A DNA stretch of 64,000 bases from assembly GCF_022846255.1 (NCBI RefSeq), contig NZ_AP025682.1. One strand, written 5' to 3'. A program made the position numbers and the translations under genes. Below the pieces are notes generated by a model. That model ran no database searches. It saw only the letters and a list, made by a program, of their open reading frames with translations, and was not told the origin of the DNA. Source of the DNA: Escherichia coli (GTDB lineage Bacteria; Pseudomonadota; Gammaproteobacteria; Enterobacterales; Enterobacteriaceae). Shown piece after piece: positions 5,356 to 11,498 of this stretch. Positions within the stretch are counted from its first letter, which is position 1. Every line of letters begins with the position of its first letter.

Positions 5356-5382
5356 GCGCGGTCCCACCCCGCGCTTTTTTTT
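5356..5382 (+). terminator. intrinsic terminator downstream of adiA
   Basis: GC hairpin gcgcgg-tcccacc-ccgcgc followed by a run of 8 T; an A-run upstream gives a bidirectional look. Confidence 0.6.
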
Positions 5383-6471: not shown

Positions 6472-7809
6472 ATGTCTTCGGATGCTGATGCTCACAAAGT
6501 GGGCTTAATCCCCGTCACCCTGATGGTGTCGGGGAATATTATGGGGTCAGGTGTTTTTCTGTTACCTGCAAACCTGGCCTCCACTGGCGGGATTGCCATT
6601 TATGGATGGTTGGTGACGATTATCGGTGCGCTGGGGCTCTCGATGGTATACGCCAAAATGTCGTTCCTCGACCCAAGTCCTGGTGGTTCTTACGCTTACG
6701 CCCGCCGCTGCTTTGGCCCGTTTCTCGGTTATCAAACCAACGTCCTCTACTGGCTGGCCTGCTGGATCGGCAATATCGCCATGGTGGTCATTGGCGTAGG
6801 ATATTTAAGTTACTTCTTCCCGATTCTGAAAGATCCACTGGTATTAACCATTACCTGCGTCGTGGTGCTATGGATCTTCGTCCTGCTGAATATTGTCGGT
6901 CCGAAAATGATCACCCGCGTGCAGGCCGTTGCCACCGTGCTGGCGCTGATCCCCATCGTCGGGATTGCCGTATTTGGCTGGTTCTGGTTCCGTGGTGAAA
7001 CCTATATGGCGGCATGGAACGTCAGCGGCCTGGGCACCTTCGGCGCGATTCAAAGTACCCTTAACGTTACGCTGTGGTCGTTCATCGGTGTGGAAAGTGC
7101 CTCCGTTGCCGCTGGTGTGGTGAAAAACCCGAAACGCAACGTCCCTATCGCCACCATTGGTGGGGTATTGATTGCCGCCGTTTGCTATGTACTCTCCACC
7201 ACCGCGATTATGGGGATGATCCCTAATGCCGCACTGCGCGTTTCTGCCTCGCCATTCGGTGATGCCGCACGGATGGCGTTGGGTGACACCGCCGGGGCCA
7301 TTGTTTCCTTCTGCGCAGCTGCGGGTTGCTTAGGTTCACTGGGCGGCTGGACGTTGCTGGCGGGTCAAACGGCGAAAGCCGCTGCCGATGACGGACTGTT
7401 CCCACCGATTTTTGCCCGTGTAAATAAAGCGGGTACGCCAGTGGCGGGGCTGATTATCGTCGGTATTTTGATGACCATCTTCCAGCTCAGTAGCATTTCG
7501 CCAAACGCGACCAAAGAGTTCGGTCTGGTTTCTTCCGTCTCGGTCATCTTTACACTGGTGCCATATCTTTACACCTGTGCGGCGTTACTGCTGCTCGGCC
7601 ACGGTCACTTTGGTAAAGCACGCCCGGCATATCTGGCAGTTACTACCATTGCCTTCCTCTACTGCATCTGGGCCGTGGTGGGGTCCGGGACGAAAGAGGT
7701 TATGTGGTCATTTGTCACCCTGATGGTCATCACCGCCATGTATGCGCTGAATTACAACCGGCTGCATAAAAACCCGTATCCCTTAGATGCACCAATAAGC
7801 AAAGATTAA
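6472..7809 (+). CDS. adiC: arginine:agmatine antiporter (APC family)
   Basis: ORF track 445 aa; polytopic membrane protein recognised as AdiC. Confidence 0.9.
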
Positions 7810-7834
7810 TTCCCCTTAATCCAGCAAACATAAA

Positions 7835-7872
7835 AGCCAACCTTAAGAACTTAAGGTTGGCTTAATTTTGCT
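7835..7872 (+). terminator. adiC intrinsic terminator (long hairpin plus T-rich tail)
   Basis: Inverted repeat agccaaccttaag / cttaaggttggct followed by taattttgctttg. Confidence 0.6.
7850..7866 (+). promoter_or_regulatory. PmrA (BasR) box-like direct repeat CTTAAG-N5-CTTAAT upstream of eptA
   Basis: cttaag gttgg cttaat about 47 nt upstream of the eptA ATG; matches the PmrA half-site pattern; further CTTAAT/CTTAAG hexamers at 7815 and 7842. Confidence 0.55.
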
Positions 7873-7912
7873 TTGCGAGCATATGCGCACTTTGTTCGAT
7901 GGAAACACCGTG

Positions 7913-9556
7913 ATGTTGAAGCGCCTACTAAAAAGACCCTCTTTGAATTTACTCGCCTGGCTATTGTTAGCCGCTTTTTATATCTCTATCTGCCTGAATA
8001 TTGCCTTTTTTAAACAGGTGTTGCAGGCGCTGCCGCTGGACTCGCTGCATAACGTACTGGTTTTCTTGTCGATGCCGGTCGTCGCCTTCAGCGTGATTAA
8101 TATTGTCCTGACACTAAGCTCTTTCTTGTGGCTTAATCGACCGCTGGCCTGCCTGTTTATTCTGGTTGGCGCGGCTGCACAATATTTCATAATGACTTAC
8201 GGCATCGTCATCGACCGCTCGATGATTGCCAATATTATTGATACCACTCCGGCAGAAAGTTATGCGTTGATGACGCCGCAAATGTTATTAACGCTGGGAT
8301 TCAGCGGCGTGCTTGCTGCGCTGATTGCCTGCTGGATTAAAATCAAACCAGCCACCTCGCGCCTGCGCAGTGTTCTTTTCCGTGGAGCCAATATTCTGGT
8401 TTCTGTACTGCTGATTTTGCTGGTCGCCGCACTGTTTTATAAAGACTACGCCTCGTTGTTTCGCAATAACAAAGAGCTGGTGAAATCCTTAAGCCCCTCT
8501 AACAGCATTGTTGCCAGCTGGTCATGGTACTCCCATCAGCGACTGGCAAATCTGCCGCTGGTGCGAATTGGTGAAGACGCGCACCGCAACCCGTTAATGC
8601 AGAACGAAAAACGTAAAAATTTGACCATCCTGATTGTCGGCGAAACCTCGCGGGCGGAGAACTTCTCCCTCAACGGCTACCCGCGTGAAACTAACCCGCG
8701 GCTGGCAAAAGATAACGTGGTCTATTTTCCTAATACCGCATCTTGCGGCACGGCAACGGCAGTTTCAGTACCGTGCATGTTCTCGGATATGCCGCGTGAG
8801 CACTACAAAGAAGAGCTGGCACAGCACCAGGAAGGCGTGCTGGATATCATTCAGCGAGCGGGCATCAACGTGCTGTGGAATGACAACGATGGCGGCTGTA
8901 AAGGCGTTTGCGATCGCGTACCTCACCAGAACGTCACCGCGCTGAACCTGCCTGGTCAGTGCATCAACGGCGAGTGCTATGATGAAGTACTGTTCCACGG
9001 GCTGGAAGATTACATCAATAACCTGCAGGGTGATGGCGTGATTGTCTTACACACCATCGGCAGCCACGGCCCGACCTATTACAACCGCTATCCGCCGCAG
9101 TTCAGGAAATTTACCCCAACCTGCGACACTAACGAGATCCAGACCTGTACCCAAGAGCAACTGGTGAACACTTACGACAACACGCTGGTTTACGTCGACT
9201 ATATTGTTGATAAAGCGATTAATCTGCTGAAAGAACATCAGGATAAATTTACCACCAGCCTGGTTTATCTTTCTGACCACGGTGAATCGTTAGGTGAAAA
9301 TGGCATCTATCTGCACGGTCTGCCTTATGCCATCGCCCCGGATAGCCAAAAACAGGTGCCGATGCTGCTGTGGCTGTCGGAGGATTATCAAAAACGGTAT
9401 CAGGTTGACCAGAACTGCCTGCAAAAACAGGCGCAAACGCAACACTATTCACAAGACAATTTATTCTCAACCTTATTGGGCCTGACTGGCGTTGAGACGA
9501 AGTATTACCAGGCTGCGGATGATATTCTGCAAACTTGCAGGAGAGTGAGTGAATGA
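7913..9556 (+). CDS. eptA: lipid A phosphoethanolamine transferase
   Basis: ORF track 7868..9556 trimmed to the internal ATG giving 547 aa ([10 protein letters not shown]...); sulfatase-type C-terminal domain; stop overlaps the basR start. Confidence 0.88.
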
Positions 9557-10221
9557 AAATTCTGATTGTTGAAGACGATACGCTGTTATTGCAGGGATTG
9601 ATTCTGGCGGCGCAAACCGAAGGCTACGCGTGCGATGGCGTGACAACCGCGCGGATGGCGGAACAAAGCCTTGAGGCCGGTCATTACAGCCTGGTGGTAC
9701 TGGATTTAGGGTTACCCGACGAAGATGGACTGCATTTTCTCGCCCGTATCCGGCAGAAAAAATACACCCTGCCGGTACTGATCCTCACCGCTCGCGATAC
9801 GCTGACCGACAAAATCGCCGGGCTGGATGTCGGTGCCGATGACTATCTGGTGAAGCCTTTTGCGCTGGAAGAGTTACACGCCCGTATCCGCGCCCTGCTA
9901 CGACGCCATAATAATCAGGGCGAAAGTGAGCTGATTGTTGGCAATCTGACGCTGAATATGGGTCGCCGTCAGGTATGGATGGGCGGTGAAGAGTTGATTC
10001 TGACGCCCAAAGAATATGCTCTGCTGTCACGGTTAATGCTCAAAGCAGGCAGCCCGGTGCATCGGGAAATTCTCTACAACGACATCTATAACTGGGACAA
10101 TGAACCCTCGACCAACACCCTGGAAGTGCATATCCACAATCTGCGCGACAAAGTGGGCAAAGCCCGTATCCGCACCGTGCGCGGATTTGGCTATATGCTG
10201 GTCGCAAATGAGGAAAACTAA
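9553..10221 (+). CDS. basR: two-component response regulator (OmpR family) BasR/PmrA
   Basis: ORF track 222 aa; receiver domain plus winged-helix; ATGA overlap with eptA. Confidence 0.9.
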
Positions 10222-10230
10222 TTGAATCTG

Positions 10231-11322
10231 ATGCGTTTTCTGCGCCGACCAATATCGCTGCGCCAACGGCTGATATTGACCATCGGGGCCATTTTGTTGG
10301 TGTTTGAGCTGATCAGCGTCTTCTGGCTATGGCATGAAAGTACCGAGCAGATTCAGCTGTTTGAGCAGGCGCTACGCGACAATCGTAACAACGATCGCCA
10401 CATCATGCGTGAGATCCGCGAGGCGGTCGCCAGCCTGATTGTCCCCGGCGTCTTTATGGTCAGCCTGACGCTATTTATCTGCTATCAGGCGGTACGCCGC
10501 ATCACCCGCCCGCTGGCGGAGCTGCAAAAAGAGCTGGAAGCGCGCACCGCCGACAACTTAACGCCCATTGCCATTCACAGCGCCACCCTCGAAATCGAAG
10601 CGGTGGTTTCGGCGTTAAACGATCTGGTCAGTCGCCTGACCAGCACGCTGGATAACGAAAGGTTGTTTACCGCTGACGTCGCGCACGAACTGCGAACGCC
10701 ACTGGCGGGGGTGCGTTTGCATCTGGAACTGCTGGCGAAAACGCATCACATTGATGTAGCACCGTTAGTGGCACGACTTGATCAGATGATGGAGAGCGTC
10801 TCCCAGCTGCTGCAACTGGCGCGTGCCGGACAGTCATTTTCTTCCGGTAATTATCAACATGTAAAACTGCTGGAAGATGTCATTCTCCCCTCGTATGACG
10901 AACTTAGTACCATGCTCGACCAGCGCCAGCAAACCCTGCTATTGCCAGAGAGCGCCGCCGACATCACCGTTCAGGGTGATGCAACCCTGCTGCGGATGTT
11001 ATTGCGAAACCTGGTAGAAAACGCCCATCGTTATAGCCCACAAGGCAGCAACATTATGATTAAGCTGCAAGAAGATGGCGGAGCGGTCATGGCCGTTGAA
11101 GATGAAGGGCCGGGTATTGATGAGAGTAAATGCGGGGAGTTGAGTAAAGCGTTTGTACGAATGGACAGCCGTTATGGCGGAATTGGTCTGGGGTTAAGTA
11201 TTGTCAGCCGCATTACACAGTTGCATCACGGGCAGTTTTTCCTGCAAAACCGGCAAGAGACTTCCGGCACGCGGGCCTGGATACGGCTGAAAAAAGATCA
11301 GTACGTGGCAAACCAGATATAA
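10231..11322 (+). CDS. basS: sensor histidine kinase BasS/PmrB
   Basis: ORF track begins at TTG 10222; the ATG at 10231 gives 363 aa; HisKA H-box (ADVAHELRTPL) and ATPase domain. Confidence 0.88.
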   Translation: MRFLRRPISLRQRLILTIGAILLVFELISVFWLWHESTEQIQLFEQALRDNRNNDRHIMREIREAVASLIVPGVFMVSLTLFICYQAVRRITRPLAELQKELEARTADNLTPIAIHSATLEIEAVVSALNDLVSRLTSTLDNERLFTADVAHELRTPLAGVRLHLELLAKTHHIDVAPLVARLDQMMESVSQLLQLARAGQSFSSGNYQHVKLLEDVILPSYDELSTMLDQRQQTLLLPESAADITVQGDATLLRMLLRNLVENAHRYSPQGSNIMIKLQEDGGAVMAVEDEGPGIDESKCGELSKAFVRMDSRYGGIGLGLSIVSRITQLHHGQFFLQNRQETSGTRAWIRLKKDQYVANQI

Positions 11323-11387
11323 AGAAAGCTGCTGACCACCAGCACGCTGAACACGGTAGTTAAACTTTCATAAACACGGTTTTTCAT
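11298..11387 (-). CDS. pmrR: 29-aa membrane peptide PmrR (MKNRVYESLTTVFSVLVVSSFLYIWFATY)
   Basis: Hand-translated small ORF missing from the ORF track; strong SD GGAGGAGAG upstream; single hydrophobic helix; overlaps the last 25 nt of basS on the opposite strand. Confidence 0.75.
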   Translation of the reverse strand: MKNRVYESLTTVFSVLVVSSFLYIWFATY

Positions 11388-11431
11388 TGCACTCTCCTCC
11401 GTTAACCTGGAGGAGAGTATGCGCGTCAGAG

Positions 11432-11448
11432 ATTAAGTGAACCTTAAG
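11432..11448 (-). promoter_or_regulatory. PmrA box-like CTTAAG-N5-CTTAAT (minus-strand reading) upstream of pmrR
   Basis: Plus strand attaag tgaac cttaag; the reverse complement reproduces the same half-site arrangement seen upstream of eptA. Confidence 0.5.
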
Positions 11449-11498
11449 AGTTCAATTGACCTGATAAGACAGCGTCACATCAGGCCATCCGTTTCAGC

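Follow-up and report, generated by a model that had tools for sequence, protein, structure and literature searches.

In Escherichia, the eptA PmrA box supplies one arm of the sole hairpin in the adiC-eptA spacer

In Escherichia, including E. coli, we found that the PmrA/BasR box of the eptA promoter is also half of the only hairpin in the spacer between adiC and eptA, an arrangement that is real and conserved within the genus Escherichia. The box and its role in the eptA promoter are already known, and full-text literature searches returned no description of an inverted repeat at the PmrA box or of a link between adiC, eptA and a terminator. The genes downstream, eptA-basRS, govern lipid A modification and polymyxin/colistin resistance. 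If the hairpin insulates or leaks, PmrAB expression would depend in part on transcription of the neighbouring acid-resistance locus, and how strongly the upstream terminator works would be determined by the promoter's own activator site, a compact case of a single sequence with one reading in DNA and another in RNA. If neither a terminator role nor a role for the third TTAA hexamer described below holds, what is left is merely a terminator-like hairpin that overlaps a known binding site.

The window, which is the whole 64-kb stretch of DNA that we analysed, contains the E. coli region adiA-adiY-adiC-eptA-basR-basS (Table 1). A 301-nt stretch around the hairpin is present in 5412 of the 5426 complete E. 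coli genomes, annotated with adiC on one side and eptA on the other. The adiC-eptA spacer is 103 nt long, counted from the end of the adiC stop codon to the eptA ATG, and positions 7835-7872 read AGCCAACCTTAAG-AA-CTTAAGGTTGGCT-TAATTTTGCT. The T-rich tract that follows the hairpin does double duty in this spacer, as the end of half-site 2 and as the 10-nt interval between the box and the -10 hexamer.

Table 1. Features of the adiC-eptA-basRS region, in coordinates of the 64-kb window
Feature	Position	Strand	Basis
adiC, arginine/agmatine antiporter CDS	6472..7809	+	ORF list, translation, RefSeq annotation of identical E. coli DNA
Left (5') arm, inverted repeat of PmrA box nt 1-14, AAGCCAACCTTAAG	7834..7847	+	100% complementary
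Hexamer 0, CTTAAG, third TTAA-core hexamer, 2 nt 5' of half-site 1	7842..7847		alignment
PmrA/BasR box, CTTAAGGTTGGCTTAAT	7850..7866	+	consensus match, pattern search
Half-site 1 of the PmrA box	7850-7855		
Spacer of the PmrA box	7856-7860		
Half-site 2 of the PmrA box	7861-7866		
T-rich tract TTAATTTTGCTTTG, candidate terminator U-tract	7862..7875	+	sequence
Predicted -10 hexamer GAGCAT of the eptA-basRS promoter	7877..7882	+	48-locus conservation
eptA, phosphoethanolamine transferase, first gene of eptA-basR-basS	7913..9556	+	ORFs, RefSeq, relatives
basR	9553-10221		ORF list / RefSeq annotation
basS	ends 11322		ORF list / RefSeq annotation

The box takes the place of the -35 element in a conserved promoter

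The initial annotation had read the direct repeat CTTAAG-N5-CTTAAT as the PmrA box of eptA, about 47 nt upstream of the ATG, and our analysis agrees on each point. The repeat is present with GTTGG as its spacer, 46 nt separate the end of the box from the ATG, and the box is genuine: it matches the consensus, it occupies a conserved position in the promoter, and a published upstream fragment of eptA is PmrA-dependent. The match to the reported consensus, CTTAAG-N5-XTTAAT (PMC3973317), is perfect, and the 300-bp E. coli eptA upstream fragment behaves as a PmrA-dependent promoter that is induced 7-fold by Fe3+ and 12-fold at pH 5.8 (PMC2904496). The pattern YTTAAK-N5-YTTAAK occurs twice in the 64-kb window where 0.14 occurrences are expected, and the second copy is at the pmrR promoter.

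To compare the promoter across species, we anchored 60 loci encoding EptA relatives from species-representative genomes on half-site 1, and we aligned 48 eptA loci of Enterobacteriaceae, which represent at least 8 genera, without gaps. The distance from box to ATG, counted from this anchor, is 63 nt in essentially all loci. The columns that are invariant in the 48 loci include the TTAA of both half-sites, the GTT after half-site 1 and the CTTAA of half-site 2, and exactly 10 nt 3' of half-site 2 there is an nAnnAT hexamer whose A2, A5 and T6 are invariant. A sigma-70 consensus scan found no promoter at the eptA box region, as expected for an activator-dependent promoter that has no -35 element, and the pmra-box is reported to overlap the -35 in pbgP, ugd and pmrCAB (PMC10570014). 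It is close to certain that the 17 nt of the box replace the -35 of the eptA-basRS promoter. Phosphorylated PmrA would bind the two direct half-sites and recruit RNA polymerase to the -10 hexamer, and the eptA start site is predicted near 7889 (+/- 2), about 23 nt downstream of the box. A start at that distance is what any box-dependent promoter would be expected to have, and it falls outside 7840-7870 in either case; the initial annotation's criterion, by which an eptA start and PmrA footprint beyond that range would count against its proposal, is therefore ill-posed. Relative to this predicted start the hairpin lies at about -56 to -27, and it would therefore exist only in RNA arriving from adiC.

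Closer to the gene, a conserved GATGGA motif lies 10-15 nt before the eptA ATG (window 7899-7913). It gives rise to a mini-ORF of four codons, METP, which ends in a stop that overlaps the start of eptA (UGAUG). The mini-ORF ATG is present in 26 of the 28 loci of the Escherichia/Citrobacter/Salmonella clade, with varying frame and length. Because neither frame nor length is conserved, we disfavour an upstream mini-ORF and judge the sequence more likely to be a Shine-Dalgarno-like GATGGA motif.

The palindrome is the longest of its kind in the window

A repeat search found two arms of 14 nt that are 100% complementary and separated by 2 nt; arms of 13 nt had been described initially, and these are present as described and lengthen by one base. 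The palindrome starts 24-27 nt 3' of the adiC stop codon, and positions 7850-7863 of the box make up the 3' arm of the hairpin. No other perfect inverted repeat in the 64-kb window with at most 10 nt between its arms is as long, and among 60 first-order Markov sequences that served as a random control the longest arm was 12, seen once. Folded as a local RNA segment, the hairpin has 13 pairs, a 4-nt loop and a stability of about -18.8 kcal/mol, and the whole adiC-eptA spacer folds to -31 kcal/mol (z = -3.7). The stem is A/U-rich in its upper half, with 5-6 G-C pairs among its 13-14 pairs.

Across E. coli genomes the hairpin is found at a median of 1 place per genome and at 2 at the highest. Because it is single-copy, we rejected the idea that it is a repeated element of the REP/BIME type. 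A 69-nt segment is at least 99% identical in 4803 of 5411 E. coli genomes. Rfam covariance models gave only a sub-threshold match at the palindrome, to STnc630 (24 bits, gathering score 55, E = 0.34).

In two E. coli strains, IS1 insertions with adjacent deletions break at the edges of the palindrome. In strain 1506 (L061) the IS1 breakpoint comes after window position 7871 and the 5' end of eptA is deleted, and in strain GN04171 (L062) it comes after 7838 and the deletion runs from eptA-basRS through to alsA.

The hairpin has marks of an intrinsic terminator and a borderline score

In a transcript coming from adiC, box nucleotides 1-14 would pair with their inverted copy to form a hairpin of 13-14 bp, followed by UUAAUUUUGCUUUG. 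The initial annotation had taken the hairpin and its T-rich tail for the intrinsic terminator of adiC, and this claim stands in part. There is a stable stem-loop near a co-directional stop codon and a T-rich tract after it; however, the U-tract is interrupted by AA and GC and the score is borderline. A specific assignment to adiC is likewise not secured: palindromes also precede eptA behind genes other than adiC.

A consensus scan found the site terminator-like on both strands. To place it among the other hairpins, we applied a discriminant that combines stem energy with the T-tract to every hairpin in the window; its values are only relative. The plus-strand hairpin ranks 13 of the 2589 candidates on its strand (d = -9.5, top 0.5%), and the tail after its 12-bp stem has a T-score of 2.78 as compared to 4.9-5.3 in the three top-ranked gene-end terminators of the window. 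Candidates at ranks 1, 2, 3, 5 and 7 lie just 3' of stop codons, with the adiA terminator among them, those at ranks 6, 8 and 10-12 are intragenic, and five of the eight candidates neighbouring rank 13 are intragenic false positives. Since intragenic hairpins occur at similar ranks, we regard the score by itself as borderline. On the minus strand (window 7836-7861), UUUUAUGUUUG comes after the hairpin and the terminator score is higher than on the plus strand (rank 4, d = +12.9); no minus-strand gene runs into the hairpin, and we therefore set this candidate aside as a by-product of the A-rich 5' flank. The supplements of an E. coli 3'-end mapping study hold no entry for adiC or eptA.

The tract that would serve as the U-tract is also the promoter spacer, and this spacer has 4-7 T in 10 nt in the Escherichia/Citrobacter/Salmonella clade, which is the clade with the long palindrome. 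It is not T-rich at eptA of the Klebsiella/Kluyvera clade nor at pmrR, and T-richness is therefore unnecessary for promoter function. Compared with E. coli intrinsic terminators, the structure is alike in having a stem-loop soon after a co-directional stop and then a T-rich tract, whereas here the stem is long with an A/U-rich upper half, the U-tract is interrupted, and polymerase release would fall inside the next promoter. From the sequence, a role as the adiC terminator is plausible. For adiC, the hairpin would most likely be a leaky intrinsic terminator or a structure that protects the 3' end, and it would thereby insulate the eptA promoter from upstream transcription; we put the chances that it has a terminator or insulator function at about even.

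Elsewhere in the window, 118 nt past the adiA stop (5356-5374, plus strand), there is a strong intrinsic terminator, GCGCGG...CCGCGC and then T8. Its counterpart in Salmonella is the terminator described for AdiZ/STnc1180, an sRNA derived from the adiA 3'UTR (AdiZ paper).

Stability of the box hairpin varies with the hairpins around it

Among the loci compared, adiC lies upstream of eptA only in Escherichia, Salmonella and most Citrobacter (26 loci). Elsewhere the co-directional upstream gene encodes a CofD-family protein (Klebsiella, Kluyvera, Raoultella), a DUF2238 protein (Intestinirhabdus) or fumarase (C. koseri), and in Pantoea and Tatumella the upstream gene is mostly divergent. We found that the stability of the box hairpin is -17 to -20 kcal/mol in Escherichia, -3.5 to -22 kcal/mol in Citrobacter, -2 to -4 kcal/mol in Salmonella and -2 to -10 kcal/mol in the Klebsiella clade. 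It is -17 kcal/mol in Intestinirhabdus, which has no adiC and carries the extended palindrome behind the DUF2238 gene, and -12 to -16 kcal/mol in three further Enterobacteriaceae that have no U-tract; shorter versions of the palindrome lie behind CofD-family or fumarase genes. At the level of single loci, extended palindromes occur without a U-tract in L025, L026 and L042 and without adiC in L021.

In all six Escherichia loci, and in three C. amalonaticus loci, the box hairpin is the sole hairpin in the spacer. The six Escherichia loci have the same left arm, next to a spacer that varies. Salmonella and the C. braakii group retain the left-arm sequence AACATTAAG, but little of the hairpin is left there (-2 to -4 kcal/mol). 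Of the 27 adiC-linked loci, those with short spacers (35-42 nt) have the box hairpin only, and it is strong. GC-rich REP-like hairpins without U-tracts (GGCCGGATAG...TTATCCGGCC; GCCCGATG...CATCGGGC) lie between adiC and the box in Salmonella (L006, L007) and in Citrobacter (L010-L014, L017, L052, L053), where the spacer grows from about 40 nt to 68-84 nt, and loci with such an insert tend toward a weak box hairpin. The stabilities of the two kinds of hairpin are anticorrelated (Spearman -0.76 over the 27 adiC-linked loci, which represent about 9 lineages and are taken with kinship ignored). That the box hairpin is weak where a GC-rich hairpin is present suggests that the two are interchangeable 3'-end structures. 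Unlike the REP/BIME-like hairpins that lie at the 3' ends of genes, the one in E. coli has a single copy, is A/T-rich and is built from a regulatory site.

Covariation in the 48 loci is weak: pairing is kept in 80% of cells, and changes on both sides are found in 2 of the 13 pairs. A compensatory change that preserves pairing, AACATTAAG / CTTAATGTT, is present in L012, L014 and L052, and in L009, L016, L022 and L023 C is replaced by T in the left arm, with G-U pairs on the plus strand as a result. We read the history of the palindrome as follows. Its short core, TTAA-N4-TTAA, would already have been present in the ancestral eptA promoter of the Enterobacteriaceae. The lengthening to 13-17 bp would be lineage-specific, and it would tend to erode wherever an insertion has placed another GC-rich hairpin between the box and adiC.

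A third TTAA hexamer is invariant at eptA and absent from pmrR

All 48 aligned eptA loci of Enterobacteriaceae share the TTAA core of hexamer 0 (7843-7846, alignment columns 18-21). This core is as invariant as both half-sites of the box regardless of hairpin strength, it is kept with any upstream gene, and it is kept where the stem is limited to 5-7 bp of A/U pairs, where a role at the level of DNA fits at least as well as pairing. On the minus strand, hexamer 0 and its flank read TTAAGGTT, an inverted half-site. This third hexamer is an uncharacterised part of the eptA promoter that the standard description of the 'PmrA box' omits.

A rival reading is that the palindrome acts in the DNA, as an operator feature confined to the eptA promoter, and that the RNA hairpin is a by-product. 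The left arm, at about -47 to -42, would then be either a third, inverted PmrA/BasR half-site or a site contacted by the C-terminal domain of the polymerase alpha subunit or by another regulator, and adiC transcription would end in some other way or read through. The left arm keeps AAnnTTAA throughout the adiC-linked clade, even where the outer stem is lost (Salmonella, C. braakii group), and in some Citrobacter (L005, L008, L016) the minus strand has a whole mirrored box. PmrA footprints may also reach far upstream, from -22 to -91 at K. pneumoniae pbgP (PMC2565834), and the PmrA activation complex moves its DNA-binding domains upstream and uses an upstream AT-rich segment (PMC10570014). However, the centre-to-centre spacing of 8 bp would place the third hexamer on another face of the helix, probably overlapping the footprint of half-site 1, and a DNA contact leaves unexplained both the outer 6-8 bp of complementarity (AGCCAA / TTGGCT) and the anticorrelation with alternative hairpins.

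The window holds an internal control for this reading. A second perfect PmrA box, CTTAAGGTTCACTTAAT, lies at 11432-11448 on the minus strand, followed after 10 nt by CATACT, upstream of pmrR, a small PmrA-activated ORF (11298-11387, minus strand, 29 aa, MKNRVYESLTTVFSVLVVSSFLYIWFATY) that overlaps the 3' end of basS by 25 nt. The same layout of box, 10 nt and -10 hexamer is found at about 50 orthologous pmrR promoters. At these roughly 50 boxes we found no conserved sequence upstream of half-site 1, no hexamer 0 and no counterpart of the left arm. Hexamer 0 is thus specific to eptA and is not a generic PmrA requirement, and we rejected the upstream hexamer as a general part of PmrA promoters. 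Promoters of the PmrA/BasR box type (OmpR/PhoB-type class; pbgP/arnB, ugd, pmrCAB, pmrR) share two TTAA-core hexamers 11 bp apart that replace the -35 and a weak -10 hexamer 10 nt downstream, and in this the eptA layout is identical to that of pmrR. In contrast, the third TTAA hexamer 2 nt upstream is found, invariant, only at eptA, to which Escherichia adds the 14-nt inverted copy of the box.

That hexamer 0 does not vary even without adiC and is missing from pmrR makes a DNA-level role a serious rival, one that we nevertheless hold to be somewhat unlikely as the explanation of the palindrome as a whole. The hexamer could be an inverted third half-site, another kind of DNA contact or a sequence kept by pairing. 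As a further and very doubtful possibility, an inverted third half-site would give the autoregulated eptA-basRS a response to PmrA unlike that of other regulon members.

Two further features were seen at pmrR. An Rfam match to the 'sRNA' STnc630 (11291-11456, 182 bits) spans the pmrR promoter and mRNA. The pmrR leader (window 11391-11418, read as minus-strand RNA) contains an inverted repeat with 10-nt arms, ACTCTCCTCC...GGAGGAGAGT, that would sequester the Shine-Dalgarno sequence, and its arms CTCCTCC...GGAGGAG are conserved across genera.

Possible neutral growth of the repeat and possible coupling to eptA initiation

A stem at this site could also be extended without any selected function, if two adjacent self-complementary CTTAAG hexamers were lengthened by template switching (quasi-palindrome correction). 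CTTAAG is its own reverse complement, so a 6-bp inverted repeat is automatic and a stem arises for free. Such growth would fit the arm lengths of 13, 14, 15, 16 and 17 bp among close relatives, the long palindrome that lacks a U-tract in L025, and the compensatory-looking changes (the L012 group; GACAACC / GGTTGTC in L025), which are expected from one-step template switching. Against it stand the left arm, which is identical across Escherichia species next to a diverged spacer, the near-identity of the 69-nt segment in E. coli genomes and the anticorrelation of stability with alternative hairpins. Perfect palindromes are usually unstable, and that this one persists suggests constraint. We consider neutral extension quite unlikely.

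The initial annotation went on to propose that read-through from adiC into eptA-basRS and PmrA-dependent initiation may be coupled, and this part remains speculation, a pure inference. If it were true, polymerases transcribing adiC under extreme-acid, anaerobic conditions would have to cross the box and would stop between it and the -10 or leak into eptA-basRS, and occupancy of the box by PmrA~P would change termination. In its favour, polymerase is predicted to be released at about 7866-7875, past the box and short of the -10 hexamer, and to terminate there it must travel across the box and sit over the promoter, although this is geometry only; the mediocre U-tract predicts leakiness; and adiC and eptA are both acid-responsive. 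Against this, acid induction of eptA is PmrA-dependent on the isolated 300-bp fragment (PMC2904496), and read-through is therefore not needed for it. Expression of adiC requires anaerobiosis and low pH, unlike the Fe3+ or mild-acid signals of PmrB, and Salmonella, with its weak hairpin, does not share the arrangement. That the adiC terminator and the eptA-basRS promoter are the same physical element, each process tuning the other, seems very doubtful to us, and mutual effects of termination and initiation, whether by read-through, promoter occlusion or altered termination by PmrA~P, are very improbable.

Three assemblies in the comparison have locus sequences at odds with their titles. L025, titled Chryseobacterium sp., carries a CofD-eptA locus of Enterobacteriaceae type (72% identity), and L059 (Comamonadaceae) and L060 (Methylobacterium) are contigs of 230-250 nt that are 100% identical to E. 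coli eptA. All three are probably cases of contamination or mislabelling in public assemblies.
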